64,000 bases of DNA from Gloeobacterales cyanobacterium (lineage in GTDB: Bacteria; Cyanobacteriota; Cyanobacteriia; Gloeobacterales; PMM-0068), in the NCBI GenBank assembly GCA_038245785.1, contig JBBRSB010000003.1, positions 1 to 64,000 of the forward strand, read 5' to 3'. The translations under genes and the position numbers were made by a program. Of the stretch, positions 2,664-22,364 are shown piece by piece. How positions within the stretch are numbered: position 1 is the stretch's first letter; each line of letters begins with the position of its first letter. The notes under the pieces are model-generated. The model was given only the letters and a program-made list of their open reading frames with translations, was not told where the DNA came from and searched no databases.

Positions 2664-2717
2664 TATAGGGGAGCGGTTTCGCCATTCTAACGTGCAACTC
2701 AGCTCTTCTAGCCTCGA

Positions 2718-3872: not shown

Positions 3873-3920
3873 CACAATTTCACCAAAAAATATCTGCGTT
3901 AGTTCAAAGCCTTTCAAAAC

Positions 3921-4352: not shown

Positions 4353-4454
4353 TATGTACGACTTAGTATCTTTTAAGGGCATGTATTTAACGTGCATGGC
4401 AACAAACGGAGTTTACTATGCATACAATTTAACAATTTAACGATTTCTTTGTCT

Positions 4455-4470
4455 TCTACCTTAATGTATA
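4455..4470 (-). promoter_or_regulatory. Island palindromic box upstream of the RR-HK-phytochrome operon
   Basis: TATACA-TTAA-GGTAGA on the minus strand, then 23 nt, then TAAATT. Confidence 0.5.
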
Positions 4471-4594
4471 CACAAATGTACAGATGAGATGTTCTAGATA
4501 TATAATTCCCAGCGGTTAAGACATTTCATAAACAAACTCTCTTTTACAACCTATTCCCTTTGGGGGTTTATAGAGGCTGATGCGTAGAGTGTAG

Positions 4595-4610
4595 TATTTC
4601 TAAAGATAGA
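4595..4610 (+). promoter_or_regulatory. Island palindromic box upstream of the orrA-like gene
   Basis: TATTTC-TAAA-GATAGA, then 22 nt, then TACAAT (4633-4638). Confidence 0.6.
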
Positions 4611-4660
4611 TAGCAAAAATAATACAATCTTCTACAATATATAGGAACAGCTCAGCGCAA

Positions 4661-5383
4661 ATGTTGTGCAGTCAAGGCATGCCTATGGAACCAATTTCTG
4701 TCGTCCTCATTGAAGACCATGATCTGACGCGGGTGGGAATACGCGCTGGCTTGCAGCAGAAGTCAACAGTTAAGGTGATTGGGGAAGCAAGCCAGGGCCA
4801 TCACGGACTGCGTCTGCTAGAAACCATGAAGCCTGATGTGGCCATTGTAGATATTGGCTTACCCGATATAGATGGGATAGAGCTGACCCGAAAGTTTAGA
4901 AGCATGGCCGTAGGGGCCGACACCAAGATTTTGATTTTGACCATGCATGATAGCGAAGACTCTGTGTTGGCTGCTTTTGCGGCAGGGGCGGACTCTTACT
5001 GCATGAAGGACATCAGCATTGACCAACTAACTGAGGCAATCATCGCCACGCATGGCGGACAATCCTGGATTGATCCTAGTATCGCCAGCATAGTGCTACG
5101 ACAGATGCGCTCTAGGTCGGAGCAGCCGATTCATAGAACGGTGCCCATTGATGCCGCAGAACCAGAGTACGTACATTTGTTAGAGTCCTCTCCTTTGACA
5201 TCCCGTGAGGTGGATGTTCTAGAGCTAATCGTTGCGGGTCAAAGCAACTCATCCATTGCTGAAAAACTATATGTAACAGTTGGTACTGTTAAAACTCATG
5301 TGCGGAATATCCTCAGTAAGCTAAGCGCTGATGATCGCACTCAAGCAGCAGTTTTAGCTCTGCGCTCTGGCCTAATCAAGTAG
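4661..5383 (+). CDS. orrA: NarL/LuxR-family response regulator, OrrA-like
   Basis: LIEDHDLTRVG, VDIGLPDIDGIELTRKF, VLAAFAAGADSY, LuxR HTH VGTVKTHVRNILSKL..DDRTQAA; recalled resemblance to Anabaena OrrA; true start may be 4679 or 4685. Confidence 0.8.
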   Translation: MLCSQGMPMEPISVVLIEDHDLTRVGIRAGLQQKSTVKVIGEASQGHHGLRLLETMKPDVAIVDIGLPDIDGIELTRKFRSMAVGADTKILILTMHDSEDSVLAAFAAGADSYCMKDISIDQLTEAIIATHGGQSWIDPSIASIVLRQMRSRSEQPIHRTVPIDAAEPEYVHLLESSPLTSREVDVLELIVAGQSNSSIAEKLYVTVGTVKTHVRNILSKLSADDRTQAAVLALRSGLIK

Positions 5384-5780
5384 CATACTTGCTGTTGCGC
5401 AGATGAGATAGTTGCTGAAGCGAGGCTAGAAGTCGTACTTGTAGCACAGCAATTTCAGTACCAACTAAATGAAACTTCCACTCAACGTTTACGTTAAATG
5501 CGGGACATTTAACATGACCCATCACTACAATTACCGATGGAGCTAAGACTTCTATTTGTTCTGGATACAGTGTCATGCCACTGCATTTATCAGCCAGGTA
5601 AGCAGCAATGGCTTCTCGACCGCGCACTTGGACCCCAAGAGGAGCAACCAGTGCGCCTGATTCACAAAAGAGGTCTGCCGCAGACAGATTTCGATGGGCA
5701 TTGACAGCCTCGAAATAGCTAATCAGTTGCTCAGGCAAGATAATAGTCTCACGAGTCTTTAAAGCAGTTTGTCGGTTCAT
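5376..5780 (-). CDS. OCP C-terminal domain homologue (CTDH/CCP, NTF2-like carotenoid-binding protein)
   Basis: YFEAVN, GALVAP..GREAIAAYL, VNVEWKF and LLASLQQL align with the OCP CTD; Tyr and Trp equivalent to the keto-carotenoid ligands are retained. Confidence 0.85.
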   Translation of the reverse strand: MNRQTALKTRETIILPEQLISYFEAVNAHRNLSAADLFCESGALVAPLGVQVRGREAIAAYLADKCSGMTLYPEQIEVLAPSVIVVMGHVKCPAFNVNVEWKFHLVGTEIAVLQVRLLASLQQLSHLRNSKYAT

Positions 5781-5805
5781 GATAGAAAAAATTAGGTTTG
5801 TAAGA

Positions 5806-5833
5806 TCCCCTAACCCCCCTCATTAAGGGGGGC
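5806..5833. repeat. Small palindromic dispersed repeat between HCP and CTDH
   Basis: TCCCCTAACCCCCCT-CATTA-AGGGGGGC hairpin, resembling cyanobacterial short dispersed repeats. Confidence 0.6.
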
Positions 5834-5875
5834 AAAGCCCTTAAAGAATTTAAATTCTTGTTAGCTAGGGGAATC

Positions 5876-6445
5876 TCAGACTGCGTTTCGGCCCATATCG
5901 TTGGCAATGTCGCGCAGAAAAGTAATCTGTTGCTCAAAATCAAGTTGCTTGACGGCATCAAGACTCTGCTTTCCAGCATCAGCCAGTTTGTAATCCTTAG
6001 GCATGCCAATTACACTATCGCCCATGCGTTCGGCTAGAACGTACCATACAGCAAGTTTATTGTTTTCAACTAAATTGCCATACAGATTACCAAGGGGCGT
6101 GTCATCACAACGCACCAGCGCACGCATAGCATCTAGTTGAGCGTCTCCAAAAGGTAGAGCATCGAATTCATCGAAAAAATTCTTTGTCAGGTCTAGGTCT
6201 GCAGAACCCAGAGCCGCTGGTGTAACTGAGTCACCCATCGCATCATATAGATAGTACAGAACTGCCAGCTTTGCATCTACTTCTAATCCATTGAACTGCT
6301 GAACAGTTTCTTTAATACCATGAGTACGGATTTCCTCAGCAGGAACCCCAGCAACGATTTGTGAAACTATTTCAGCAGTCTCTTCTGGGGAAACTCCCGC
6401 AGCAGGCTTAGTCTCAAACTCAAATTCCTTGTTTGCATCAGACAT
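5876..6445 (-). CDS. Helical carotenoid protein (OCP N-terminal domain homologue, HCP)
   Basis: MGDSVTPAA, QLDAMRAL, NNKLAVWYVLAERMG, VIGMPKDY and LDFEQQITFLR..DMG are OCP-NTD motifs. Confidence 0.92.
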   Translation of the reverse strand: MSDANKEFEFETKPAAGVSPEETAEIVSQIVAGVPAEEIRTHGIKETVQQFNGLEVDAKLAVLYYLYDAMGDSVTPAALGSADLDLTKNFFDEFDALPFGDAQLDAMRALVRCDDTPLGNLYGNLVENNKLAVWYVLAERMGDSVIGMPKDYKLADAGKQSLDAVKQLDFEQQITFLRDIANDMGRNAV

Positions 6446-6502
6446 TATGTGTTCTCCACTTAGTACACTCCAAAAGAATAGAGTTTTTTAAAAAGGGTCA
6501 CC

Positions 6503-6518
6503 TCTTCCTTAAGTTAGA
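6503..6518 (-). promoter_or_regulatory. Island palindromic box upstream of hcp-ctdh
   Basis: TCTAAC-TTAA-GGAAGA (minus), then 22 nt, then TATTCT. Confidence 0.6.
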
Positions 6519-6612
6519 AACTATCAAGGTATACATAATCATAAAATTACAGCCCAATATTAAGTGCCCGTAAGTTAATTATCTAAATCTATTCATAAGG
6601 GTGACTCAATTC

Positions 6613-6628
6613 TATTTCTTAGGGAGGA
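6613..6628 (+). promoter_or_regulatory. Island palindromic box upstream of psb35-like/dps
   Basis: TATTTC-TTAG-GGAGGA, then 22 nt, then CATCCT. Confidence 0.5.
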
Positions 6629-6683
6629 TGGATAGGAAAGTGCTTTCTGTCATCCTGATGTCAACGAAAAGAAGGTTCAGCTT

Positions 6684-6893
6684 ATGGAAATCCCCATTAT
6701 TCTGCTTGTCGTCGGTTTCATCGCCGCTGCGACATTGGGTTCGATAGCTTGGTACAACTCGAAGCGCCCACCTGGTTGGGAAGATGCTGAAAAACCTGAT
6801 GTTGTGCCAGATCTGACCCTTGACCAAAAGGAATGGCCTAACGAACCCCGTGAATCCGACACCACAAGTCAAGGAAGAACGGTTCGGGACTAA
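6684..6893 (+). CDS. psb35: Photosystem II assembly factor Psb35-like single-helix membrane protein
   Basis: GFIAAATLGSIAWYNSKRPPGWE motif. Confidence 0.72.
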   Translation: MEIPIILLVVGFIAAATLGSIAWYNSKRPPGWEDAEKPDVVPDLTLDQKEWPNEPRESDTTSQGRTVRD

Positions 6894-6967
6894 CTAAATC
6901 TGTCTTTATGGCGATTTTTTCTTCTGCCAACCTTGATAAAAGAAGAGTAGTTTCACAAGAGGATGTT

Positions 6968-7525
6968 ATGAGTTCACGACGTAAAATCAACATTGGCTTG
7001 ACTGATCAGCAGCGCCAGGGTGTAATTACTCTAATCAATCGCAACATTGCAGATGCTTCCCTCCTACTGATCAAAACCAGGAAGTATCACTGGGATGTAA
7101 TTGGTCCCCAATTCCGTACCCTGCATAAACTGTGGGAAGAGCAGTATGAAGCTCTGACGCTCAATATTGATAGTTGTGCAGAGCGTATACGGGCTTTGGG
7201 TGGCTATCCCGTTGGCAGTGCTGCAGGTTTTCTGCAGTTGGCTACCATCAAAGAGCAAGAGGATACAATCCTTTCCGCCACGATCATGGTTGCCCAACTG
7301 CTGACTGATCACGAACAGGTTATTCGCGCTCTGCGTGAGGACATCGATGCCTGTAGCGAGCAGTTCCATGACCAGGGGACGGCAGACTTTCTCACTGGCT
7401 TGATGGAACAGCATGAAGATATGGCTTGGATGTTGCGCTCCTTTATCGAGGGCGAAGCAGTTGAGCCCGACGGCGTTCTACCAGCAACTGCCGAGACTAG
7501 ACCGCTAGCGGCGAAAAAGCGCTAA
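6968..7525 (+). CDS. dps: Dps family DNA-protection/ferritin-like protein
   Basis: KYHWDVIGPQFRTLHKLWEEQY, AERIRALG, DQGTADFL..HEDMAWML; AGAGG RBS before ATG 6968. Confidence 0.93.
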   Translation: MSSRRKINIGLTDQQRQGVITLINRNIADASLLLIKTRKYHWDVIGPQFRTLHKLWEEQYEALTLNIDSCAERIRALGGYPVGSAAGFLQLATIKEQEDTILSATIMVAQLLTDHEQVIRALREDIDACSEQFHDQGTADFLTGLMEQHEDMAWMLRSFIEGEAVEPDGVLPATAETRPLAAKKR

Positions 7526-7604
7526 TCTTCATTGCAGAAGAACATTTATTGAATTGCAATTCATTGCCTATCTCTTCTAGATATTACATCTGGCTGTGAT
7601 GGAT

Positions 7605-7642
7605 AAAACTTCCTGGTGAATGATTAGCCAGGAAGTTTTTTG
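7605..7642 (+). terminator. Intrinsic terminator after dps
   Basis: AAAACTTCCTGG...CCAGGAAGTTTTTT stem-loop followed by a T run. Confidence 0.65.
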
Positions 7643-7661
7643 GAGATTAATAGCAAAATAA

Positions 7662-7677
7662 TCTTCCTTCAGGAAGA
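7662..7677 (+). promoter_or_regulatory. Island palindromic box (perfect arms)
   Basis: TCTTCC-TTCA-GGAAGA, then 22 nt, then TATCTT. Confidence 0.65.
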
Positions 7678-7733
7678 TTATTTTAAAAGCTATAATTCTT
7701 ATCTTAGGTGTAGAACTCTCATGGATAGTCGAA

Positions 7734-8075
7734 ATGACATTTGCACAACCGCCCAAGCCCTCTGAGAAAGAAGTGACTAACTCCTATGAAGCTTTGCAGT
7801 CTGAGGGGGAAGATGCAGGATATAAAGTTACTCCCGAATCTCTAAACACGCAGCCTACTCCGACTGACCTGCTGCACGCGGCACAGTCCTATGCGCAAGC
7901 AGCTCTTGGTGAAGGTAGCCAGCTGCAGCAATTTAAACAGGTGAGCGATAAGCCAGAAACTTGGCAAGCAGCAGTGATTAACGGTTCAAAAACTGGTTTG
8001 CTGACAGCAAAGAAAGTCCCTGGTGGCTATGACTTGAAAGTAACCAGTGAAGAAGTGCAAGGCATCTACGATTAG
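7734..8075 (+). CDS. Hypothetical hydrophilic protein
   Basis: 113-aa ORF preceded by the island promoter box; family not recognised. Confidence 0.6.
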   Translation: MTFAQPPKPSEKEVTNSYEALQSEGEDAGYKVTPESLNTQPTPTDLLHAAQSYAQAALGEGSQLQQFKQVSDKPETWQAAVINGSKTGLLTAKKVPGGYDLKVTSEEVQGIYD

Positions 8076-8210
8076 TTGACAATACCACGATGATAGTCCG
8101 CTGCCTTGCGCGGGCTGCATACTCCCTTGTGCTTTAACCTGAGATCTCTATAAGTGAACACTGGTAATCAGTAAGAGAAGCAATACTGTTTAACTCTTAG
8201 TTGCTCTACC

Positions 8211-8417
8211 TTAACTATCCACAGAAAGCCATTCGGCAAAAGTCCAAGTCCCGACGATAATCAACAAAGGGAGTAAGGCTATGCTGCCGAAACTAAGCAG
8301 TTGAGACGGCATACTAAAAAACTGTTGAGGCATGATGACGGAGAATAGCGAGCCTCCAGAAAGGAGAGTTCCTGCTAGTGTACTTACACATTGTAGATAA
8401 AGGCGACGAGATTCCAT
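8211..8417 (-). CDS. Small two-helix membrane protein, hypothetical
   Basis: 68 aa, two hydrophobic segments, AAGGAA RBS upstream. Confidence 0.5.
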   Translation of the reverse strand: MESRRLYLQCVSTLAGTLLSGGSLFSVIMPQQFFSMPSQLLSFGSIALLPLLIIVGTWTFAEWLSVDS

Positions 8418-8602
8418 ATTAGATTTCCTTGAGGAAATGACTACACTATTAAGCGAAAGTATTGCGTCAAAGCAAAGTGCTTATGAACATCTTGCAATCT
8501 TTCCCTTTTTAGATGTTCAAACTCCTCAAGTTCGATGTCTTAAAGTATATCTTGCTAGCATCGGTAGAACGTTGCTGCCTTCAAAAGTAGCTGATTAAGC
8601 GG

Positions 8603-9136
8603 CTATTGAAGTGATGGCTCATTTGATCCAGGCTCTAACCAGTGTTGATATATCGCACGGGAACCAGCGTCTTCCAGTGCAATGATCACGTGCACACTTC
8701 GTAGACCTGGACTCGACTGATCAGCGATCGCTTGCAAAAACTGAATAGCTGCGTTGGCAGAGGTAAACCTCCCCTCAACAGTTGGTGAGAGCATATTATC
8801 AGATACTTGTTGTGCATCAAATTCGGTTTCTTGTGTCTGCCCTAAATCAATCACTGCAAGCTGTTTAGCTTCTGGACTAACCTGTTCAACAATCAACTTT
8901 TCGCGGCGAATAGGCACCTCCACTATTCGTGTTTCAATCTCCTTACGGACAATCACTTCGCCCACTTTGCGCTTGTGGAGATTGACTACCAGCCGCTCTT
9001 CCAACAACTGGATGGTTTCCTCTGCGACAATTGAGGAAACATTGATAGCAGAACGCCCAACGGTCTCTTCTGTTTCTAGCACATTAGGCGCGGAAACCAT
9101 CTGAGCATCAGATTCCTCAGGTTTTGAAAGCGGCAC
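8603..9136 (-). CDS. DUF2382 (YsnF/AvaK-type) domain protein
   Basis: IQLLEERLVV..KRKVGEVIVRKEIET..VEVPIRREKL. Confidence 0.85.
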   Translation of the reverse strand: MPLSKPEESDAQMVSAPNVLETEETVGRSAINVSSIVAEETIQLLEERLVVNLHKRKVGEVIVRKEIETRIVEVPIRREKLIVEQVSPEAKQLAVIDLGQTQETEFDAQQVSDNMLSPTVEGRFTSANAAIQFLQAIADQSSPGLRSVHVIIALEDAGSRAIYQHWLEPGSNEPSLQ

Positions 9137-9159
9137 GATTGTTTCTCCTAAAAGATAGT

Positions 9160-9188
9160 TCAGGCAGAGTGTTTCAAGCTCTGCCTGA
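9160..9188. terminator. Intergenic hairpin between the avaK-like gene and the DUF2382 gene
   Basis: TCAGGCAGAG-N9-CTCTGCCTGA. Confidence 0.5.
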
Positions 9189-9238
9189 GCTGTTTTACAT
9201 GCTAAGACTTACGGACAGAGGTCTCAGCATTGGCTTGC

Positions 9239-10171
9239 TTAAGGGCGATTTTCAGGGCGGGGTATATTAGACCCTTTATCCACAACCGGGCTGCCTTCGG
9301 TCTTGATATCTAACTCTTCGCGACGCAGGGCTTCCTCTGCGTTAATCGTTTGCTGATCAACTTGCTTTCTAACGTTAACTTCTTCACGCACGAAAGCTTC
9401 CTTATGAATGTCTGGAGTCTCTTCGTAGACTTCCATACGCGCAACTTCTCCTTCCTGAAAAGCTGTATCACCTGGTGTGACTGCTGTACCTTCGCCCGTT
9501 GGAGTCGTGCGCTCAATCACGACACGCTCTTTTTCGATCGGCACAGAGACTTTGGTGGTTTCAGTCTCCACGCGCTTGCCTATCGTCACTTCACCAGTCT
9601 TGGCACGAGTTTTACTAGCGATTAGCCGCTCTTCATATAGCCGCAGATTTTGATGGGTGTCATCTTTCAAACCATACAAAGCCTGATCGTGATCATAGGA
9701 ATAATTATCACGATTCATCGGAGTGGTAGTATCCACTGCTGCTGTATTCAAGGGAGTGGTAGTATTCACCACTGCTGTATCCAGGGGAGTAGCGGTATCT
9801 AACGTTTCCGTTCCCATGGCCATCGGGCGGTACACACCGCGTACTTTCTCTTCATGCTCATAATCTACAGGCATACTGCCGTCGTACTTGGGCAATGCCT
9901 CGATTTGAGTACGGGTGAGCCCATCTACAACAATGCGGCGCTCAGTTTCTTGAATTTGAGCGCGACCAATGGGCAACAAGACCTGCTTTCCTAGAATCCA
10001 AAATCCAGTGTTGACAACTAGGTACCGAATCTTACCCGTGTCATCAACCAACAGATCATCGACGGAGCCAACCTTGTCACCATTTGCATACAGGTCGTAG
10101 CCGACAATGTCCTTGTCCTCAAAATGAGTACGGTAATCTGGATCAAATTCCTTAATTTTTTGCAGAGGCAT
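9239..10171 (-). CDS. avaK: PRC-barrel + DUF2382 protein (AvaK-like akinete/dehydration marker)
   Basis: KVGSVDDLLVD..RYLVV.TGFWILGKQVLLPIG PRC barrel; LRLYEERLIASK...GEV DUF2382. Confidence 0.85.
   Translation of the reverse strand: MPLQKIKEFDPDYRTHFEDKDIVGYDLYANGDKVGSVDDLLVDDTGKIRYLVVNTGFWILGKQVLLPIGRAQIQETERRIVVDGLTRTQIEALPKYDGSMPVDYEHEEKVRGVYRPMAMGTETLDTATPLDTAVVNTTTPLNTAAVDTTTPMNRDNYSYDHDQALYGLKDDTHQNLRLYEERLIASKTRAKTGEVTIGKRVETETTKVSVPIEKERVVIERTTPTGEGTAVTPGDTAFQEGEVARMEVYEETPDIHKEAFVREEVNVRKQVDQQTINAEEALRREELDIKTEGSPVVDKGSNIPRPENRP
9720..9800. repeat. 33-bp tandem repeat (about 2.5 copies) inside the avaK-like linker
   Basis: GGAGTGGTAGTAT... units at 9720, 9753 and 9786 encode DTATPLDTAVV/NTTTPLNTAAV/DTTTP. 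Confidence 0.8.
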
Positions 10172-10227
10172 GTTCTTTCCTATTTCTAGCTACAGGTCAA
10201 CCTTAGAAAACGATTTAAAATCATGCC

Positions 10228-10243
10228 TCTATCTATATGATGA
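10228..10243 (-). promoter_or_regulatory. Island palindromic box upstream of the avaK-like operon
   Basis: TCATCA-TATA-GATAGA (minus), then 22 nt, then TAAGGT. Confidence 0.55.
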
Positions 10244-10329
10244 TTTGGGAGCTTTGTGAGGCTGACAGAAATTGCAAATTGTTTAAATGAATACATTTCT
10301 TAATCTTATATGATGGCAATCGCTAAACC

Positions 10330-10345
10330 TATTCATAAAGATAGA
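10330..10345 (+). promoter_or_regulatory. Island palindromic box upstream of a membrane protein gene
   Basis: TATTCA-TAAA-GATAGA; -10 ambiguous (TACTAT at 20 nt). Confidence 0.5.
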
Positions 10346-10430
10346 GGTGAAGTCTTAGGGATAAATACTATGAATGGTTCTAGAAATTGATTTTTTATGC
10401 ACGCTCATTGAAGAAAGGAGAAAACAGGTA

Positions 10431-11081
10431 ATGGAATATACAGACAGACCAGATAGACCCATGGAATACGATGCTGAACGTTCTACTGTTGCAGTAGCTG
10501 ACTACCATGACCGAGTACGTTGGGGTCCAATCTTCGCTGGGTTAGCAATTACTTTAAGCGCAGAACTGGTATTAAGTGCACTAAGTACAGCTATTGGAGC
10601 AACCAACATTGCTGGCTCAGGAGCACCGCGTTCCAATGCTGACGATGTGGGTTTGGCCGTTGGGGTCGCGTCTACCGTCAGTTTGCTGATTTCACTTTTG
10701 GTTGGCGGCTGGATAACTGCCCGCACCTGTGGACCCATGAAGAAGAGAACCGGTTTATTGAACGGAGCAATTCTCTGGGCAACTAGTTTGGTCATTAGCG
10801 CCTGGCTGCTTTCTAGCGGCGTGTCTGGGGCCTTTGGCATAGTAGCATCCAATGCCGCACCGCTGCTTAATCAGGCAGAGCAGAATGGCATCAATGTTCC
10901 TAACGTTCCTTCAAATGTCCCTAGGCCAACGGCACAGCAAACCCGTGACATTGCTGGCAATCTGTCAAAGGGTAGCTGGGCATTTGCGATTGGTTCTTTG
11001 CTGGGCTTAGGCGCAACGCTGGTTGGTGTTTCTATTGGTACTCGGGAGCCCAATATAACTCCGATACAGACAGTACGGTAA
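10431..11081 (+). CDS. Conserved multi-pass membrane protein
   Basis: DRVRWGPIFAG followed by about four hydrophobic helices; AAGGAG RBS before ATG 10431. Confidence 0.8.
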   Translation: MEYTDRPDRPMEYDAERSTVAVADYHDRVRWGPIFAGLAITLSAELVLSALSTAIGATNIAGSGAPRSNADDVGLAVGVASTVSLLISLLVGGWITARTCGPMKKRTGLLNGAILWATSLVISAWLLSSGVSGAFGIVASNAAPLLNQAEQNGINVPNVPSNVPRPTAQQTRDIAGNLSKGSWAFAIGSLLGLGATLVGVSIGTREPNITPIQTVR

Positions 11082-11277
11082 GTGATAAAGCGAGCTCATA
11101 AATCAACCGATCCAGGCAGGCAATCTCTTCTGCCTGGATTAATTTGCGTAAGTTCTCTCCTTTGAAAATAGGTAAATTGGGATTTCTTATGGATTAATTC
11201 CTATTTCCTGAAATAGCTTCCTGTGGTGAACAGATGTCTTTTTAGGATGGGGATTACAAGTTTTGACAATCATGATC

Positions 11278-11293
11278 TATTCCTCAAGATAGA
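11278..11293 (+). promoter_or_regulatory. Island palindromic box upstream of the DUF2231 gene
   Basis: TATTCC-TCAA-GATAGA, then 23 nt, then GATAAT. Confidence 0.55.
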
Positions 11294-11384
11294 TGCTTTA
11301 ATGATGCATTTTCTTGGATAATCGACGTGGTTTCTAGACTATTTAAAATAGAAAATAGCCAATCTACGAAATTAGGATGAAGCT

Positions 11385-11918
11385 ATGGCACAAACGTCTA
11401 AACAGTCTTCTGACATGTCACCTCTTATTGAAATTAACGAAGGTGAAGATAGAGATAGCGGCATTGTAAGCACGGTAGCGATTGCATCCCATCCCTTGCA
11501 TCCTCTGCTGGTTACTTTTCCGATCGCCTTTTTAGTCGGTGCTTTGGGTACGGATGTGGGATATTGGTTAACCGCTGATCCTTTCTGGGCTAGAGCATCG
11601 ATCTGGTTGATTGGATCAGGGTTTGTTGGTGGTATTGTTGCTGCACTAACTGGAATGTTAGATTTTTTGCGAATTGACCGAGTTCGGAAACGTCGTGCTG
11701 GTTGGGTGCATATGATAGGTAATGTCGCTGCTTTGTCTCTTACCTTAATTAACTGGTTAACCCGCTTGAACAATCCAAGTGATGCAGTTTTGCCTCTAGG
11801 TTTGATTCTTTCCCTTATTGTGGCATCCTTACTGGGTCTTACGGGATGGTATGGAGCGGAACTAGCTTACCGTCATAAAATTGCAGTGATTGGCACCAGT
11901 AGCCGTCAAGGAGATTAG
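11385..11918 (+). CDS. DUF2231 membrane protein
   Basis: HPLHPLLVTFPIAFL; GWVHMIGN; GWYGAELAYRH. Confidence 0.88.
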   Translation: MAQTSKQSSDMSPLIEINEGEDRDSGIVSTVAIASHPLHPLLVTFPIAFLVGALGTDVGYWLTADPFWARASIWLIGSGFVGGIVAALTGMLDFLRIDRVRKRRAGWVHMIGNVAALSLTLINWLTRLNNPSDAVLPLGLILSLIVASLLGLTGWYGAELAYRHKIAVIGTSSRQGD

Positions 11919-11944
11919 CGACAGCTACTTTAAAGACGGCAGTA

Positions 11945-11986
11945 AAAAGAAGAGACCCTGTCTGTTAAGACAGGGTCTCTTCTTTT
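11945..11986. terminator. Bidirectional intrinsic terminator
   Basis: AAAAGAAGAGACCCTGTCT-GTTA-AGACAGGGTCTCTTCTTTT between convergent genes. Confidence 0.85.
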
Positions 11987-13154
11987 ATGGTTTCAGCACT
12001 ACTTTGATGCAGTTTTCCTTTTTGTGCTTAAAGATTTCGTAGGCATGGGGTGCATCATCTAGTTTTAACTGATGCGTGATCACGAAAGAAGGATCGATAT
12101 CTCCTTTTTGAATATGCTCCAACAGTGGATTTAAATAGCGATGAACATGGGTTTGTCCCATTTTGATGTTTAGACCCTTGTTAAAGGCAGCACCCATCGG
12201 CACCTTGTCTATAAACCCGCCGTAAACACCTGCCAGCGAAACATTTCCCCCTTTACGACATGCTACAAGGACTTGCCGGAGTGCAGTAGGACGATCGCTT
12301 TCCAATTTCACCGTTTGTGCCACCCTGTCATACAAAGCGTCCATTCCTGTACCATGCGCTTCCATACCCACTGCGTCAATCACAGCATCAGGGCCCCGTC
12401 CACCTGTCATTTCCTTGACCGCTTCCCCGGCGTCGACCTCTTCATAGTTAATGAGTTCTGCCCCACCCCACTCTTTAGCCATCTGCAGGCGCTCAGGAAC
12501 CCGATCGATGGCAATCACTCGCTCGGCACCCAATAAGTAAGCGCTTTTAATCGCAAACTGCCCCACAGGACCGCATCCCCAAACTGCTACCGTATCGCCC
12601 TGCTGAATATTGCAGTTCTCTGCTGCCATATATCCAGTTGGAAAAATATCGGTTAGAAAGAGAACCTGTTCATCAGCCAGCCCATCAGGAACTTTTAAAG
12701 GTCCAACATCGGCAAAAGGAACGCGCACGTATTCAGCTTGTCCGCCCGCATATCCACCAAACAAATGAGAATAGCCAAATAAAGCGGCGGGAGAGTGACC
12801 CATTAATTTCTCTACCATCCAGGCATTGGGGTTGCTATTGTCACATAATGACCATAGATCGCGATTACAAAAGAAACAGCCTCCGCAAGCAATGGCGAAG
12901 GGGACAACGACACGATCGCCTATCTGCAAGTTTTTAACCCCTGCTCCTAGCTCTACCACTTCCCCCATGAATTCGTGACCCAAAATATCGCCCGATTTCA
13001 TCGTGGGAATGTAGCCATTGTAGATATGCAGATCTGAACCACAAATCGCCGTAGAGGTTACTTTGATAATCGCATCCCGTGGATTGAGAATTTTTGGATC
13101 AGGGACTGTGTCAACGCGTACATCATTGGTACCATGCCAGCAAAGAGCCTTCAT
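11985..13154 (-). CDS. Zinc-dependent alcohol/formaldehyde dehydrogenase (MDR family)
   Basis: ICGSDLH, GHEFMG, CGGCFFC..C zinc ligands, GCGPVG. Confidence 0.92.
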
Positions 13155-13210
13155 GAATTGTTTTCCTCGCAGTAATAAATGAACGTAGAAGATTAGGTAT
13201 TGCCATCTGA

Positions 13211-13951
13211 TTAAGCGGTGCTTCCCTCTCGGCCACGTCCTGAAGACTGACCTTCCGTAGTTGCTATTTCACCCGCTTCCATCAATTGTTTAAAGCGTCG
13301 CAAATCATCGCCCAGTTGCTGTTCAGGTTCTTCCCCAAACAGTTTGGCAAATGCTGCTCCCACAATGCCACCAGGCGGATTGTATTCCAATACCACTTTG
13401 ACCTCTGTTCCCCGTCCAGGAGGAGCTGCTTGGAAACGAACAAAGCCAGAGTTGTCAATTTCAGCATCTGCAACTGAATTCCAGGCAATCAATTTTTTAT
13501 CTGGATCATCGATTACGATTTCTGCATCCCATTCAACAGTGGTATTTGCAGGTGCATTTACAACCCAGTGCGAAAGCTTTTCATCGATTACCGCAACCGA
13601 CTTTAAATGTTTCATAAAAGAAGGCAAGTTCTCGAAGTTGTGCCAAAACTGATATAGTTCTTCTGGCGATTTGTTGAAAATTGATACTGATTTTTCAACT
13701 TTTATACTTTGAGAAGCTCCTACTGCCTCGGTAACAGTTTCTGTAATACTCTTCTTTGCCGTTGCCCCGTGATAGAGCAAACTGCCACCCGTCAGTGCAG
13801 TCAATACACCCCGTAAAGAACCCTGCCGCAATCCCATTAAGATGAGCGCCCCTCCTCCAAGTAAGGATGTCCAACGTTCAGCATCACTGAGCTTCCCTTC
13901 TGATTCTTCTGATTTGTCCGATGGATTTTTTGGATTTGTAATCTCTTCCAT
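13211..13951 (-). CDS. SRPBCC (cyclase/dehydrase-like) protein with an N-terminal membrane segment
   Basis: [44 protein letters not shown]. Confidence 0.88.
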
Positions 13952-13986
13952 GAATCACTCCTGTGCTTGGTAAGCACGAGATAAAT

Positions 13987-15006
13987 CTAAGTTTGCTTGT
14001 CGTTTTTGAGCGCGTGTAAAGCTAATAGGCCTAGCCCTGCCACACCTAAAACTGCTGCTGTGCTACCGCCAGGCAAATGGCGATCAATCCAGTCAGTTAT
14101 GCTGGGAACGGTTAGCTGGCGGAAGTCTCCCTCTACCCTGTCGTACTCTGGTGCTGGCTCGTAAAGATTATTAGATGCATCTTCTGTCTTCTGTTCATTC
14201 GTTTTCTGCCCCTGAAATCCGATTTTCATTAATAGATAATCGATTAGCTCGGGAGAAAGCCGCTGCAATATATCTAGAACCTTACCCACATCACCCACAA
14301 TGAAATCACGAGTTGGATGCTCAGATACATAAAGAATGGCCTCTGCAACCAGACTAGGCTGATAGTAAGGTGGGATTCCTGTAGGTTTAACGCCTAGCTT
14401 GGTTTTGCCTTTGTTATAGAAGGGCGTGTTGATGACAGAGGGTTTAATACTGGTGACACTAATTGGAACTCCCTCATGTTTTAGCTCAACGCGCAGAGAT
14501 TCTAAAAAGCCTTCAATGCCATGTTTTGCAGATGAATAAGCGCTTTGGAAGGGCAACGCCCTTCTACCTTCCATCGAAGAAACATGAATGAGTGCCCCAC
14601 GTCCTTCTCGCCTTAAGTGTGGCAAAGCTACCATTGCACCGTAAACTTGTCCCATCAAAGTAACATCAATGACACGCTTAAACTCTTGTGGAGTCAAGTG
14701 CTCAAATGTCGAGAAAACAGCCGTTGCCGAGGAATGTACCCAGGTGTCAATTCGCCCATAAACAGCGATCGCTTTGTCAGCAATAGTCTGTACTTGCTCG
14801 AACTCAGAAACATCAGCAACTACTGAAGTAACATCCGCTCCAATCTGGCGAATCTCTTCCTCTAAAGATGAAAGCCCGGATTCACTACGCGCTGAAATTA
14901 CTAACTTTGCACCTTTCTTAGCGAATCGCAAAGCTGTTTCTCGCCCGATTCCGCTAGAAGCACCAACAATAACAACAATCTGATTGGCGATTTGCTTAAG
15001 CTGCAT
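13987..15006 (-). CDS. Short-chain dehydrogenase/reductase
   Basis: GASSGIG; YSSAK catalytic motif. Confidence 0.92.
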   Translation of the reverse strand: MQLKQIANQIVVIVGASSGIGRETALRFAKKGAKLVISARSESGLSSLEEEIRQIGADVTSVVADVSEFEQVQTIADKAIAVYGRIDTWVHSSATAVFSTFEHLTPQEFKRVIDVTLMGQVYGAMVALPHLRREGRGALIHVSSMEGRRALPFQSAYSSAKHGIEGFLESLRVELKHEGVPISVTSIKPSVINTPFYNKGKTKLGVKPTGIPPYYQPSLVAEAILYVSEHPTRDFIVGDVGKVLDILQRLSPELIDYLLMKIGFQGQKTNEQKTEDASNNLYEPAPEYDRVEGDFRQLTVPSITDWIDRHLPGGSTAAVLGVAGLGLLALHALKNDKQT

Positions 15007-15237
15007 TACATTTCCTAATTATTGAAAAATTCTGAAAGGTTTAATCTCAATTGAGCTGCACTGAGCAAAGTAAGCAAATTCTGGAACACATCAAAGTTTT
15101 TTAAGCTCAAGATTAGGATTATTTGAGCAATTACTAGATTGCTCATTTCTTCCAACAAATTGAGTTATAGTTTTCACCTATTTGTGATTCAAATATAGAT
15201 TACTTGTATATCTTAAAAATATTTGTACAATGAAGCA

Positions 15238-15253
15238 TCTCGCTTAAGACATA
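15238..15253 (-). promoter_or_regulatory. Island palindromic box upstream of the SDR-SRPBCC-ADH operon
   Basis: TATGTC-TTAA-GCGAGA (minus), then 22 nt, then TAAGAT. Confidence 0.55.
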
Positions 15254-15278
15254 GAATATCTACAGATATGTAAATCTA

Positions 15279-15878
15279 TCAATTTTTGTTGATGGCACGA
15301 CCTGGGCTAATCAATGAAATACCCTGCCCCGAAGATGTCCCAATCATGATCGCTTCGACAATAGGTTCGTCTACACCTTTTTTTGTTTTCCACTCTACGA
15401 TAAAGTTAGCTCCCGAACCACCGCTCGTGTCTTCATCCTGCACAAAAAATTCAGCCGTTGCCATCGGAGGAATTTGCAAACTATTCTTGGAGTATTTTTT
15501 GACTAAACGGCCTTTTGTATCGTAGTAACGAACTGATTTTACTAGAATTGAATCAGTGAGGCTGGTATTGCGAATACTGAGCGTAATGGCTAAAAGGTAT
15601 TCCTGTCCGCTGCGGTAATACACATGGGAATAGGCAGGCACATAGATAGTTTGTCCTATCTCCGCTGCCGTTCCGGCGGGTTGGGGCGAAGGAGAGAGTT
15701 CTTCACCAGGAAATGTCGGTGGTAGTCGCGTCAATTCCTCTACCTGTGGCGGCTTATCGGATGCAGGTGTTTGCTCTTTCTGCTGCGCTGTACAGGAACC
15801 AAGCAACCCTGCCGCAATTGATGAAAAAAGGACCCGAATAATCGAGTCTCTTGTTGTCATAAATGTCTCTGGTAACAT
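15279..15878 (-). CDS. DUF3124 domain lipoprotein
   Basis: Lipobox LGSC; GQTIYVPAYSHVY; LSIRNT; GGSGANFIVEW; start may be 15860. Confidence 0.85.
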   Translation of the reverse strand: MLPETFMTTRDSIIRVLFSSIAAGLLGSCTAQQKEQTPASDKPPQVEELTRLPPTFPGEELSPSPQPAGTAAEIGQTIYVPAYSHVYYRSGQEYLLAITLSIRNTSLTDSILVKSVRYYDTKGRLVKKYSKNSLQIPPMATAEFFVQDEDTSGGSGANFIVEWKTKKGVDEPIVEAIMIGTSSGQGISLISPGRAINKN

Positions 15879-16081
15879 TTTCCTGCCTTCAACCCTCAGC
15901 GATTCTAACGGACTCGCGTTTAATGGGCCTGATCAAGACGTTTTCCTAGAGACTTGGTATTCTAAGTAGGTGGGCTTAGTTAACATGAAAGTAACCCCCG
16001 GCTATAGCCGTCCCCCACCCTCCGGTAAGGCTGCGCCTAGTGTCAAGGGATACTACAGGGGGTCTTATAATACTTATGCCC

Positions 16082-16525
16082 TTACTTATCCGTGAAAAAC
16101 TTACGAACCATATAGCTGGAGCCTTCCCGCAGGACATTCATCGCTACGCTGGTAAGTACTGTTGCGAACACAGTATTCTTGCCAGTCTCCTCAATGAGTT
16201 CCTTCTCGCGTTTTGGGCTCTCTAGGCTGTCTTGATTCTTGCTACCGCTACGTGCACTTTTTGTTCCAGACGGTGAAGGTAGTGCAGAGCCAACGATGAA
16301 GCCAGCCGCTGTAGCAATCGTCACGCTAGCCAAAGGGTGCCTATCGACCCATAGCTTCCAGTCTAGGTTAGAACGCACCTGCTGCTGAATTTGAGTAGTG
16401 GTAGCAGCGATTTGCTGGCGCGTACGCCGAATTTCTTCCTCGGCGGGGAGGCGCTGCTCAAGCACTTCTGCCTCGTTTTTCTGTGTCCCATTCTGATTAA
16501 CAGGAACTATCTGCGCGTTAGCCAT
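16082..16525 (-). CDS. DUF3618/YqjK-like membrane-anchored protein
   Basis: EEIRRTRQQIAAT coiled coil followed by HPLASVTIATAAGFIVG. Confidence 0.7.
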   Translation of the reverse strand: MANAQIVPVNQNGTQKNEAEVLEQRLPAEEEIRRTRQQIAATTTQIQQQVRSNLDWKLWVDRHPLASVTIATAAGFIVGSALPSPSGTKSARSGSKNQDSLESPKREKELIEETGKNTVFATVLTSVAMNVLREGSSYMVRKFFTDK

Positions 16526-16887
16526 AGAACGGTCTCCTTCGTATTCAATGCGGTGCGATCCACTGGGTTAATCTTGCCTAGGCGTTTCAAGGAGAAGAAG
16601 GCCAGTAAACTGCCTCCACCAATCAATCCCACGGCTACGGCAAAAGCGGCTGCCCAGGAAGGCAACCATACTTTCAGCACTTCCATGAGCGTAATCCCAA
16701 TGAAAACTAGCCCTAAAAGAGCCATTACTACGCCTGTGACAATGCCGACCGATTGGGCGGCCATGCGTTTGCCATCAGCAGTCAGTTCCTCCCGCACCAA
16801 ACGTAAGTGTGCGGACAGCAACTCTTCTATCTGAAGAACCAACTGCGCTAGCAAGTCACCCAGATTCGCCTGAGAAGATTGCGGCAT
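16507..16887 (-). CDS. YqjE/'phage holin family' membrane protein
   Basis: LGDLLAQL..HLRLVREEL followed by two TM helices; ElaB-YqjE-YqjK operon layout. Confidence 0.78.
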   Translation of the reverse strand: MPQSSQANLGDLLAQLVLQIEELLSAHLRLVREELTADGKRMAAQSVGIVTGVVMALLGLVFIGITLMEVLKVWLPSWAAAFAVAVGLIGGGSLLAFFSLKRLGKINPVDRTALNTKETVLWLTRR

Positions 16888-16892
16888 GCTCT

Positions 16893-17237
16893 CTACCTCT
16901 TCAGTAACTGAGAGATCACAAAGCCAGCACCAAAAGCAATACTCATGCTTAGCAAGGGTTGTTTACGAACTGCTTGGTCTATCTGTTCGCCAAGTTGTTC
17001 TGCACTAGTGGACTGCAAGGTGTCTGCACCACGGCGCACCTGTTCTGCAACCTTTTGAGCTGTCCGGTCAACAGATTCGCTGCTACCGTGACCCGTGCTT
17101 TCAATCTTTTCTGCCAGTTGATTCAACTTCTCAGAAGTCCCTTCAAGAGCATGATCAATTTGCCCAGTGATTTTTTCCTGCATCTCATGCTGCTGTGAGC
17201 TTGTGGAATTTTCGGCAGCATCTTGGGAGTACACCAT
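16893..17237 (-). CDS. ElaB/YqjD-like tail-anchored stress protein
   Basis: Hydrophilic helical body with a C-terminal VRKQPLLSMSIAFGAGFVISQLLKR anchor; AAGGAG RBS. Confidence 0.8.
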   Translation of the reverse strand: MVYSQDAAENSTSSQQHEMQEKITGQIDHALEGTSEKLNQLAEKIESTGHGSSESVDRTAQKVAEQVRRGADTLQSTSAEQLGEQIDQAVRKQPLLSMSIAFGAGFVISQLLKR

Positions 17238-17366
17238 AATTTGCTCCTTTGTATCGTTCTCGTTTTGGAATGCCTAGCGACGTTTCCGTAAGGTACGCTC
17301 ATGCCGCCCACACATTCCAACGGTTTTATCTCACCAACAATGTAGTAGATTGCATTTACTAAAACA

Positions 17367-17382
17367 TCTACCAAAGGAAGGA
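17367..17382 (-). promoter_or_regulatory. Island palindromic box upstream of the elaB-like operon
   Basis: TCCTTC-CTTT-GGTAGA (minus), then 22 nt, then TACATT. Confidence 0.6.
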
Positions 17383-17476
17383 TCTGGCGTTTTAATTGTA
17401 TTAGCCAGTTTAATCGTATATTTCAACCATAATTAGCATCTGACTACTGAGAGCTCACCTAAATGTCTATGCAAAA

Positions 17477-17492
17477 CTTGTCTTTAGACAGA
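17477..17492 (+). promoter_or_regulatory. Island palindromic box upstream of the CHASE3 kinase
   Basis: CTTGTC-TTTA-GACAGA, then 22 nt, then TAAGAT (17515-17520). Confidence 0.55.
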
Positions 17493-17592
17493 TGTCTATG
17501 CTAATGGTGAGCCTTAAGATATCCATGGATCTCATTCTTCTCAATGCTTCCTATGGTGTAGTAGCCAGAGCTGGAGTACTTGGCAACTAAAT

Positions 17593-19461
17593 ATGTTTCG
17601 ACCAGTTCGCACCCGTTTAAAAGTGTCATTCCCCGCACAAGAGCAGGGCTTTGGTAGGCTATTTACGGTTGCCTTAATCTGGCCGCTCGTGCTAATGGCC
17701 GCACTTGCAGGCTTGTTAACTTGGCAGGTAAAGTTCCTCCTTGCCGAGGCCCAGGCTCTTAATGATGCGAATCAGTTGATTTTGAAGTTCTCCCTTACCC
17801 AAAAGCTTTTCATTGATTTAGAAACAGGAGTGCGTGGCTATCAAATCACGGGTAACCAAGATTTTCTGCAACCCTATCAAGAAGCACAGCAGCTCATTAC
17901 TCCGACCCTTGAGGAGTTGGATCGGCAAATCGGGGATAGCACTCCCTTAGAAAAGGCTCAGGTGGCGAACATTCGCAGTGAGTATAAAAAGTGGCAGAGC
18001 TTTGTACAGAAGGCCCTTCTCGTAAAGAATAAACTAAATAATGCTCGAATTCTTGCGCTTAACCTCCAGGGCAAGCAACAAATGGACCTTATTCGTTCCT
18101 CCATCGCGAAAATGGAAGAACGTGTGCTTGCTCAACGCGCCCAGCGCAATCAGAATATAGAACAGAAAGTTCCTGTTAGCTTAACGATCATCATTGGCAC
18201 CTTTCTGACAGGGGCTGGGCTCTTGGCCATCCTCTCACGCAACCAGTTGCGCTACCTTTCTCAAAAGTATGAAGACTCTCTCGCCTCCGTCCGTGAGCAG
18301 ACAGAGGCTCTAGAGGATGGGGAAATTCGCTATCGCTCCCTAGTAGAAGCTGTTTCTGAGATTGTCTGGAGTACTGATATAGATGGCCAAGTAGTCACTG
18401 AACTGCCCGACTGGGGTGCCTTCACGGGCCAGAGGTTCGATGAGTATAAAGGGTGGGGCTGGCTGAATGCTATCCACCCTGAAGATAAGGAGCGCACTGC
18501 TATCGCTTGGACTGAATCAGTCCGTGAGCGTAGGCTTCATGCTGATGAGCATCGCTTGCGCCGCTTCGACGGCATTTATCGTTATATGCGGATACGGGGT
18601 GTACCGCTCATCGGAGAGGACGGCGCAGTGCGCGAGTGGGTAGGCATTCACACGGACATCGATGAACGCAAGCGTGCCGAAGAGGCGCTTGTTCAAAGAG
18701 CGGAAGAACAAGTACGGCTCTCTAAAAATTTAAGTGCCACTGCTGTCCGCTTGGAGGAACGCAATCGGGAACTGGAGCAGTTCAACTACGTTGTCTCCCA
18801 TGACCTGAAAGCACCACTGCGGGCGATTGGTAGTCTCTCCGAATGGATCGAAGAAGACCTGCAATACCAATTGAGCGATGAATCTCGACGCAATATGAAC
18901 TTGTTGCGCGCGCGCGTGTATCGGTTAGAAGCCCTGATCAATGGGCTGCTGCAGTACTCCCGTCTAGGCCAGACCAAAATGAGCTTCGGGCTTGTCCCGG
19001 TCGCTGAATTGCTAACGCAAGTAATCGACCGTTTCGGCCCGCCATCTGGCTTTACGGTTACAGTCGAGCCATCCATGCCTGTGCTGAACACAGACCGGAT
19101 GTTGCTGGGGCAAGTCTTTACAAGCCTGATTGACAATGCCATCACCCATCACGATCGTCTCGAAGGCCAAGTGAAGATCACCGTTTCGGATGAGGAGAAT
19201 TTCTACAAGTTTGCTGTTAGTGACGACGGACCTGGAATTGACGAGCGCTTTTATGAAAAGATATTTTCGATTTTTCAAACGCTGGAGCCCCGTGACAAAC
19301 GTGAAAGTACGGGTATCGGTCTGGCCCTGGTCAAACGGATCATCGAAAGACAGGGCGGCCAAAGTTGGGTAGTGTCGCAGCTCGGAGAAGGCAGCACCTT
19401 TTATTTCACCTGGCCTAAAAATGCGCCAAGATCAGAAGACACTCTCCTCGGCAATCGTTGA
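17593..19461 (+). CDS. CHASE3-PAS sensor histidine kinase
   Basis: TM, then DLETGVRGYQITGNQDFLQPY (CHASE3), TM; PAS GWGWLNAIHPED; SHDLKAPLRAI; DDGPGI and GIGL. Confidence 0.92.
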   Translation: MFRPVRTRLKVSFPAQEQGFGRLFTVALIWPLVLMAALAGLLTWQVKFLLAEAQALNDANQLILKFSLTQKLFIDLETGVRGYQITGNQDFLQPYQEAQQLITPTLEELDRQIGDSTPLEKAQVANIRSEYKKWQSFVQKALLVKNKLNNARILALNLQGKQQMDLIRSSIAKMEERVLAQRAQRNQNIEQKVPVSLTIIIGTFLTGAGLLAILSRNQLRYLSQKYEDSLASVREQTEALEDGEIRYRSLVEAVSEIVWSTDIDGQVVTELPDWGAFTGQRFDEYKGWGWLNAIHPEDKERTAIAWTESVRERRLHADEHRLRRFDGIYRYMRIRGVPLIGEDGAVREWVGIHTDIDERKRAEEALVQRAEEQVRLSKNLSATAVRLEERNRELEQFNYVVSHDLKAPLRAIGSLSEWIEEDLQYQLSDESRRNMNLLRARVYRLEALINGLLQYSRLGQTKMSFGLVPVAELLTQVIDRFGPPSGFTVTVEPSMPVLNTDRMLLGQVFTSLIDNAITHHDRLEGQVKITVSDEENFYKFAVSDDGPGIDERFYEKIFSIFQTLEPRDKRESTGIGLALVKRIIERQGGQSWVVSQLGEGSTFYFTWPKNAPRSEDTLLGNR

Positions 19462-19520
19462 CCTGGGATAGAATCTGACTAGGATTATGGGCCAAAATCT
19501 CTTTTTAAGAAAATGAGCAT

Positions 19521-19536
19521 TCCTCCTCTGGGTAGA
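19521..19536 (+). promoter_or_regulatory. Island palindromic box upstream of DUF1328/GlsB
   Basis: TCCTCC-TCTG-GGTAGA, then 23 nt, then TAGGAT. Confidence 0.6.
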
Positions 19537-19598
19537 GGTGGAAGCATGACAGCCAGTACTAGGATCAATGTAACAGTTAAGTTGGGAGATTTACAAAC

Positions 19599-22337: not shown

Positions 22338-22364
22338 CTCTCACTAATTCTGATTTAGTCAACT

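Follow-up and report, generated by a model that had tools for sequence, protein, structure and literature searches.

The 64-kb window analysed in this study (positions 1 to 64,000 of contig JBBRSB010000003.1 from a Gloeobacterales cyanobacterium) contains a gene island in which an OrrA-like response regulator, its two-component neighbours and genes such as avaK, dps and a helical carotenoid protein (HCP) gene are preceded by a shared 16-bp box. According to the original prediction, twelve such boxes stand at a near-fixed distance from a -10 hexamer and define an island-wide regulon of this regulator. All twelve 16-mers were found where they had been placed, each of them unique in the window, and with the strands and spacings that the prediction implied (Table 1). 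Five boxes (4455, 6503, 10228, 15238 and 17367) lie on the minus strand and the other seven on the plus strand, and together they are arranged as four divergent pairs and four single promoters. At four sites the distance from the end of the box to the ATG is 55-57 bp.

The frequency of the box was compared with shuffled DNA and with the intergenic DNA of the whole genome. The first model was built from 78 strict-pattern matches in five other genomes and is semi-independent, since the pattern was partly designed from the window sites. This foreign model placed 14 box positions of at least 10 bits in the 3,084 bp of island intergenic DNA, and 11 of these are sites of the original prediction. In 500 dinucleotide shuffles of the same DNA the mean was 0.9 box positions and the maximum 5, which contradicts the notion that the motif is no commoner than in shuffled intergenic DNA. 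The density of boxes was 4.5 per kb in the island and 0.42 per kb in intergenic DNA genome-wide. The second model, derived only from avaK promoters of other genomes and fully independent, gave 11 of the twelve sites a score beyond the 99th percentile of intergenic DNA, and nine of these also passed the 99.9th; the exception was 4455, the weakest site under this model. The repeated box far exceeds chance and is a real promoter element.

The box is a degenerate 16-bp dyad with the core T-X4-C-X4-G-X4-A, usually followed by KG. The consensus proposed originally, TMTWYC-N4-GRWAGA, holds as an approximation: the fit is loose, with three of the twelve sites exact and six carrying one mismatch (two mismatches at 10228, three at 15238 and four at 17477), and it missed both the T7/A10 pair and the K-G tail. 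The column counts (n = 12) were 11 for T1, nine for C6, 11 for T7, nine for A10, 12 for G11, 11 for A14 and 12 each for G15 and A16, followed by T or G in 11 and G in 10. The element is therefore described as a 7-2-7 dyad with an asymmetric K-G tail directly 3' of the box. The 6-bp arms pair at 2-6 of 6 positions, and the sole perfect palindrome is 7662. The dyad symmetry comprises T1/A16, C2/G15, Y5/R12, C6/G11 and T7/A10, and it is partly imposed by the search model.

The near-fixed distance to the -10 hexamer stood for nine of the twelve sites, where a strict TA-N3-T follows the box after 22 nucleotides (N22, seven sites) or 23 nucleotides (N23, at 4455 and 19521). The three others carry imperfect hexamers (CATCCT at 6613, GATAAT at 11278 and TATGAA at 10330). 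Read on the plus strand, box 6503 also shows TAAAAT at N23. In several Leptolyngbya-type loci (L003-L007, L012, L061, L063, L064) the -10 after the box of the regulator is CATAAT or CATACT, not TA-N3-T.

Table 1. Boxes with their predicted -10 hexamers, and the regulatory genes among them, in the 64-kb window. Positions of box rows run over box and hexamer; N22 and N23 give the nucleotides between the two.
Feature	Position	Strand	Adjoining genes and remarks
Divergent two-component cluster	321..4397	-	single-domain response regulator 3921-4397, REC-kinase hybrid 2718-3917, PAS-GAF-PHY kinase 321-2663
Box 4455-4470, -10 TAAATT (N23)	4426..4470	-	faces single-domain response regulator, hybrid kinase and phytochrome kinase genes
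Box 4595-4610, -10 TACAAT (N22)	4595..4638	+	faces OrrA-like regulator; predicted autoregulation
NarL/LiaR-type response regulator, REC and GerE helix-turn-helix (HTH)	4661..5383	+	helix VGTVKTHVRNIL; sole OrrA-clade member in genome
Box 6503-6518, -10 TATTCT (N22)	6475..6518	-	before HCP gene 5876-6445, then open reading frame (ORF) 5376-5780
Box 6613-6628, weak -10 CATCCT (N22)	6613..6656	+	before psb35 6684-6893 and dps 6908-7525
Perfectly palindromic box 7662-7677, -10 TATCTT (N22)	7662..7705	+	before ORF of 113 amino acids 7734-8075
Box 10228-10243, -10 TAAGGT (N22)	10200..10243	-	before avaK (PRC and DUF2382) 9239-10171 and DUF2382 ORF 8603-9136
Box 10330-10345, weak -10 TATGAA (N23)	10330..10374	+	before membrane-protein ORF 10431-11081
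Box 11278-11293, GATAAT (N23)	11278..11322	+	before DUF2231 gene 11385-11918
Box 15238-15253, -10 TAAGAT (N22)	15210..15253	-	before genes for short-chain dehydrogenase (SDR), polyketide-cyclase-like protein and Zn-dehydrogenase, 15006 to 11985
Box 17367-17382, -10 TACATT (N22)	17339..17382	-	before ORFs 16893-17237, 16507-16887 (holin-like) and 16082-16525
Box 17477-17492, -10 TAAGAT (N22)	17477..17520	+	before CHASE3-PAS histidine kinase 17593-19461
Box 19521-19536, -10 TAGGAT (N23)	19521..19565	+	before DUF1328 gene 19599-19760 and transglycosylase-associated protein gene (to 20077)

The scan of avaK promoters of other cyanobacteria, which had been suggested together with the twelve sites, recovered the box de novo. 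DUF2382 (avaK) is present in 81 of 301 genomes of the phylum, and the promoter set consisted of 57 upstream regions from 40 other genomes, analysed by expectation maximisation without any input from the window. The resulting motif was TCAGTCGTCAGAAAGA-GG-N20-TA...T, in degenerate form TC..TC...AG..RGA-KG-N20-TA...T, and it was placed in 50 of the 57 regions, mostly 58-76 bp before the start. Its log-likelihood was 919 (40 starts), compared with 127 and 135 for two shuffled sets (12 starts). The avaK promoters are homologous, so the result represents footprinting and not independent sampling; the spacers diverge, and the box and the -10 are kept.

The co-occurrence of box and regulator was analysed in 80 genomes of the same class, hand-picked from this phylum sample, in which matches to the strict pattern were counted against a reversed control and the regulator was regarded as present when a close OrrA-clade match at E 1e-75 or better was found. 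The 56 genomes with a close OrrA-clade regulator gave 539 matches vs 112 for the control, the 10 intermediate genomes 27 vs 15, and the 14 genomes lacking a close match 21 vs 21. An excess of at least five matches was present in 38 of the 56 regulator-bearing genomes and in none of the 14. The 17 genomes that carry the regulator and lack avaK also showed the enrichment (87 vs 34). Within the order to which the window belongs, a close homologue of the regulator was found in 12 of 13 other genomes, and 11 genomes of its two other families gave 55 matches vs 9, a count that includes seven identical copies from one genome. In the genome G307, seven identical 44-base pattern matches probably lie within a repeated mobile element. 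Strict-pattern matches also stand before two ORFs of G020 (L146 and L162) that we take, from their sequences, to be ycf3 and ndhI; these matches could be due to chance. When the 450 bp upstream of 80 regulator homologues were scanned with a position weight matrix of the window sites, matches of at least 10 bits faced the gene in 15 of 80 regions and pointed away from it in 36 of 80, compared with 3.8% in shuffles; the set is heavily redundant for Microcoleus, and this result is treated as a lead only.

The box is not confined to the island, and the idea of an island-wide regulon turned out to be too narrow, as the regulon it marks extends through the genome and the phylum. Outside the island, the matrix of the twelve sites gave 40 intergenic matches of at least 14 bits, nine of which are followed by TA-N3-T at N22, compared with 0-4 at each of 17 other offsets; crudely called coding regions showed a smaller N22 peak (4 of 55). 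The foreign model found 52 intergenic matches at N22 (seven of them in the island) vs 9-25 at other spacings, and the avaK-only model gave a weaker N22 peak outside the island (61 vs 26-49). The matches are also oriented: 34 of 45 non-island N22 matches face a same-strand ATG ORF 10-130 nt downstream, vs 24 of 101 matches at N17-20 and N25-27. A family scan covered 39 downstream proteins (the top 40 minus three apparently spurious ORF calls, plus two others), and 17 of them belong to stress-type or plausibly stress-linked families, namely catalase, two CsbD, YflT-CsbD, PfpI, OsmC, two hemerythrins, DUF326, a pyridoxamine-oxidase-like protein, SDR, MscS, YihY/BrkB, molybdopterin oxidoreductase, CBM48-amylase, flavodoxin and an Na/H exchanger.

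The gene content of the island is reshuffled in the closest relative (L001). Its regulator is 88% identical to that of the window, the position of box 4595 is retained, and the regulator is flanked by hemerythrin, CsbD, YflT-CsbD and DUF1328 genes; in the genome studied here these flanking genes sit on contigs C35, C14 and C3, and most of them are box-led in L001. Other box-led clusters of stress genes in the same genome lie at C14:85700-97900, C28:200-11500, C35:2491-49500, C23:53369-61700 and C42:18300-19500. Boxes were also found upstream of two sigma70-family genes, C1:389499 and C39:30137 (107 and 683 bp before the start), and a sigma cascade below the regulator is possible. Another box-led gene, at C42:18307-18564 and in three Nostocales-type genomes (L128, L156, L169), encodes a protein of 85-86 amino acids that matches neither Pfam nor NCBIfam; it would be a conserved regulon member of no assigned family.

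In the window itself, two small box-led ORFs were added to the predicted targets, psb35 and the DUF1328 gene. The ORF between box 6613 and dps was identified as Psb35 (NCBIfam NF047378, above cut-off), and a psb35-like ORF of G050 (L134) is likewise preceded by a box, which suggests that a photosystem II assembly factor belongs to the stress regulon. The DUF1328 gene of L001 is preceded by the same box. The scan of the window found no box before ORF 15279-15878 or before the internal genes 8603-9136 and 11985-13154, and no Rfam match was obtained for positions 1-30000. Just beyond the cluster, a TetR regulator and an MFS efflux pump (21684-23969, plus strand) carry no box. Between the transglycosylase-associated ORF and an acetyltransferase gene, positions 20130-20700 hold fragments resembling a broken membrane transporter gene.

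The protein encoded at 4661-5383 combines a REC domain with a GerE/LuxR HTH domain, and the next match in its own genome is only 37% identical. Its best Nostocales-type matches are 64-66% identical, and in seven of the eight best of these the published orrA forward primer of N. flagelliforme fits with 0-3 mismatches, vs 5-6 in three paralogues. In the phylogenetic tree the window protein falls in a supported clade of 40 rows (96/94) together with OrrA orthologues and paralogues, apart from the other NarL proteins of the genome. A box precedes seven of the eight Nostocales-type OrrA orthologues and none of the three paralogues. These results point to the OrrA-like regulator as the likely reader of the box and support the predicted autoregulation. 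The motif TVKTHVR was invariant in all 80 regulator homologues. In Nostocales-type orrA promoters (L300-L302, L309, L310) two boxes face each other, the second overlapping the predicted -10 of the first, possibly a self-limiting layout. OrrA paralogues that are 55-62% identical occur in many genomes; one of the OrrA clade, 61% identical to the window protein, lies on plasmid delta of PCC 7120 (L121, NC_003273.1:26869-27582), and further OrrA-clade copies are carried on plasmids of Acaryochloris, Nostoc and others.

The genes behind the boxes agree with published expression data for OrrA. In Table S1 of PMC9804601, which lists induction by salt/dehydration in PCC 7120, the values for the wild type vs the orrA mutant are 278/187 vs 1.2/2.6 for avaKa, 112/171 vs 2.7/2.9 for dps all0458, 143/90 vs 17/1.5 for alr4783, 69/53 vs 2.6/4.1 for susB, 236/268 vs 2.2/3.0 for katB and 26/34 vs 2.3/3.0 for all3766; the hcp genes likewise lose their induction in the mutant, and sigB2 is OrrA-dependent with an induction of only about 3-fold. 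Binding has been reported at the promoter level, as OrrA bound the susB promoter in a yeast one-hybrid assay and also the mysA promoter (PMC13131328). Of 17 Nostocales-type susB genes, 14 have a box of 10.6-15.9 bits at a distance of 106-197 bp upstream, with a joint box and -10 score of at least 12 at N22 in six cases and at N23 in 12, compared with 0.6% in shuffles. Of the two one-hybrid primers, the reverse one could be located in four loci, immediately ahead of the susB start and with 2-4 mismatches; the forward one found no placement in the 17 susB loci (8-10 mismatches). The joint threshold was also passed by the upstream regions of 6 of 13 susA-like genes. A term search for an OrrA operator gave none in the text covered of PMC9804601, PMC13131328, PMC12157317, PMC7760821, PMC12282138 and PMC4390843, with Ehira 2014, Schwartz 1998, Cumino 2010 and Shang 2018 outside its scope; the words 'bind', 'promoter', 'motif' and 'consensus' are absent from the text of PMC9804601 so covered.

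The part of the original prediction according to which the regulator activates its kinases was not supported. A two-component layout comparable to that of the window adjoins orrA in relatives and in PCC 7120, and in the latter, going by PMC9804601 and its Table S1, only all3766, the small single-domain response regulator divergent from orrA, is OrrA-dependent, and the adjacent kinases all3764, all3765 and all3767 show no induction. According to a statement in the preprint (bioRxiv 10.1101/2021.08.03.454875), given there as unpublished data, the cognate kinase is not among the three encoded next to orrA, and the kinase Dsp1 has been reported as the OrrA partner in N. flagelliforme (PMC13131328). 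The kinase directly divergent from the regulator in L001 (8585-9784) has its best match in the present genome at C14:88130-89350, just past a box-led CsbD gene, and the latter is a candidate cognate kinase.

The best solved relatives of the DNA-binding domain were 4wsz/4wt0 and VraR, which have TVKTHV in common with it. In our reading, 4wsz/4wt0 and the DNA complexes that go with it represent LiaR of E. faecalis. For LiaR the published consensus reads T(X)4C(X)4G(X)4A, and in the structural description Lys177 forms bonds to the guanines of the C and G positions, whose first T is followed by the base that Thr178 touches (PMC4482077). The best-kept positions of the box (T1, C2, C6, G11, G15 and A16) are those contacted or defined in LiaR; eight of the twelve window sites carry all four LiaR consensus bases and the other four carry three. 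The window regulator keeps the equivalents of Lys177 and Thr178.

Three other motifs were rejected as the identity of the box. In agreement with the original prediction, it is not the NtcA box: no exact GTA-N8-TAC was present at any of the 12 sites, the best having 1-3 mismatches. The NfSrr1 motif ATMAGTAARCYYAAT differed by 3-6 bases from the sequence near each of the 12 sites, and by 3-5 bases in the upstream regions of 15 susB genes; for the Rre1 motif GTNCGGK the count was 1-3 mismatches at the 12 sites.

The class II promoter geometry that had been proposed is supported by the spacing to the -10 and by the N22 peak outside the island. Counted from a -10 hexamer that occupies -12 to -7, the box would span -50 to -35 with its centre at about -42.5, instead of the -41/-42 first expected. 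The K-G tail would then correspond to the second and third bases of TTGACA, and would represent a vestigial -35 under a class II activator.

Taken together, the box is probably (about 0.75) the operator of the OrrA-clade regulator 4661-5383 at class II promoters of a general-stress regulon. Under salt or drying, the receiver domain would be phosphorylated by a kinase, and the regulator would then attach as a dimer to the T-X4-C-X4-G-X4-A dyad, where Lys and Thr of TVKTHV would recognise G11/C6 and C2/G15 in the same way as LiaR. Centred near -42.5 and abutting the vestigial -35, reduced to K-G at about -34/-33, the bound dimer would recruit RNA polymerase with a sigma70-type factor, and the box at the promoter of the regulator itself would provide positive feedback. 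The window would be the densest of several target clusters in one genome-wide regulon, with Dps, catalase, CsbD, PfpI, OsmC, YflT, AvaK, HCP, Psb35, hemerythrin and MscS among its predicted members.

Several observations weigh against this assignment. The excess of matches stays below five in 18 of the 56 regulator-bearing genomes, and the 14 regulator-less genomes are mostly small, so that the co-occurrence is confounded by lifestyle, kinship and genome size. Among the targets, the window's own susB-like sucrose synthase gene (24338-26749, plus strand), 4.8 kb past the last box, is not preceded by a box; the joint threshold is passed by 8 of 21 upstream regions of short Mn-catalase genes and by none of eight of long ones; and among the 39 proteins scanned, 12 are not obviously stress genes and 10 have no Pfam family. 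As to the regulator, the inner forks of the 40-row clade are weak and do not separate the window protein from OrrA paralogues, the base-contacting Lys174 of LiaR is Gly in the window protein, and TVKT is also present in two other LuxR-type proteins of this genome (C9, C4). These two share the contact residues, which favours the view that the box is real and bound by another LuxR/NarL regulator, be it an OrrA paralogue, an NfSrr1-type protein or one of the two, with OrrA acting upstream or in parallel. The OrrA paralogues of many genomes speak for the same view, as does the limit of the knockout data, which cannot separate direct from indirect targets. NfSrr1, itself a LuxR regulator, shifts susB and treZ promoter probes (PMC11962455), a further point against OrrA as the reader. 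We regard a reader other than OrrA as unlikely because the NfSrr1 and Rre1 motifs fail to match; moreover, this genome has a single OrrA-clade gene, the box stands before OrrA orthologues and not before the three paralogues, and genomes with only distant NarL matches (about 40%) show no enrichment.

The rigid spacing to the -10 would also be expected if the box were the -35 element recognised by a group 2 sigma factor of the SigB2 type, stress-induced and under OrrA control, with no activator bound, and the right half of the box plus KG is indeed better conserved than the left half, sigB2 is OrrA-dependent in Table S1, and boxes precede the two sigma70-family genes mentioned above. This explanation is still less likely than a different LuxR reader: the dyad symmetry, partly imposed by the search model, reaches about -50, which lies beyond the contacts of sigma region 4, the core equals a known NarL-family operator, and the induction of sigB2 in that table is small next to the 50- to 270-fold induction of avaKa, susB and katB. 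Very improbable is a repressor operator or island-private control gained with the island. The ten-fold higher box density in the island and its slightly lower GC content (0.44-0.47 vs 0.48-0.52 in the flanks) would fit such an origin, yet the same box and spacing occur genome-wide and across many families, the site just upstream of a weak -35 is activator-like, the loss of orrA in PCC 7120 abolishes induction and does not cause derepression, and in L001 the cluster is reshuffled and the boxes travel with the genes. Finally, chance matches in AT-rich intergenic DNA would be helped by the degeneracy of the consensus, with its three exact sites; given 14 positions where 0.9 were expected, the independent rediscovery of the box in other genomes, and the spacing and orientation bias outside the island, this explanation is close to negligible.

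The closest known system is the regulon of OrrA (Alr3768) in PCC 7120 and N. flagelliforme as presented in PMC9804601, bioRxiv 10.1101/2021.08.03.454875 and PMC13131328. It has in common with the window the regulator clade, the divergent two-component neighbours and the target families avaK, dps, hcp, catalases, sucrose synthases and Zn-dehydrogenase. The published version is genetic (microarray), with binding only at promoter level and no operator sequence in the texts searched. The window differs in that its regulator lies among its own targets, with a phytochrome as the upstream kinase and a susB gene that has no box. The LiaR/VraR operators of Firmicutes (PMC4482077) have the same 16-bp core and a reader with the TVKTHV helix and the Lys177/Thr178 equivalents, the best structural match; as far as that source describes them, they differ in the Lys174 contact, control cell-envelope stress and have extended footprints, in contrast to the rigid N22, the trailing KG and the general-stress genes found here. 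Rre1 (PMC13421787) and NfSrr1 (PMC11962455) are also cyanobacterial LuxR/NarL stress regulators, and NfSrr1 is likewise reported to have susB and treZ as targets; the motifs given for both mismatch the 12 sites. NtcA class II promoters (GTA-N8-TAC-N22-TAN3T) share the N22 distance to TA-N3-T, but the NtcA site has another sequence and length and its reader belongs to the CRP family, not the NarL family.

The general-stress regulons under sigma-B in Bacillus, RpoS in E. coli and EcfG in alphaproteobacteria overlap in their target families with the one found here, in CsbD, YflT, catalase, Dps, PfpI, OsmC, DUF1328, transglycosylase-associated and YsnF/AvaK proteins. In contrast to the alternative-sigma promoters of those regulons, the site here is of a dyad activator type at sigma70-type promoters. 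It is about an even bet that cyanobacteria possess a general stress response with a content like that of sigma-B, RpoS and EcfG, wired through a LiaR-type OrrA and one class II operator rather than an alternative sigma factor. The OrrA circuit may predate the radiation of oxygenic cyanobacteria, because both the regulator and the box occur in the order of this genome, which branches early. On this reading, the number of boxes per genome would be a sequence readout of the investment of a cyanobacterium in drying and salt tolerance.

OrrA has been known since 1998, and about 400 dehydration-induced genes are under its control. As no OrrA operator was found in the texts searched, its direct and indirect targets could not be separated. 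If the box is the OrrA operator, direct targets could be predicted from sequence, and binding and reporter tests could draw on exact probes and point mutants derived from a defined box with rigid spacing. Such a box would also allow the prediction of direct regulons in cyanobacteria that are genetically intractable, those of desert crusts among them, offer salt- or drying-inducible promoter parts, and tie the control of desiccation in cyanobacteria to a structurally solved class of operators, that of LiaR.

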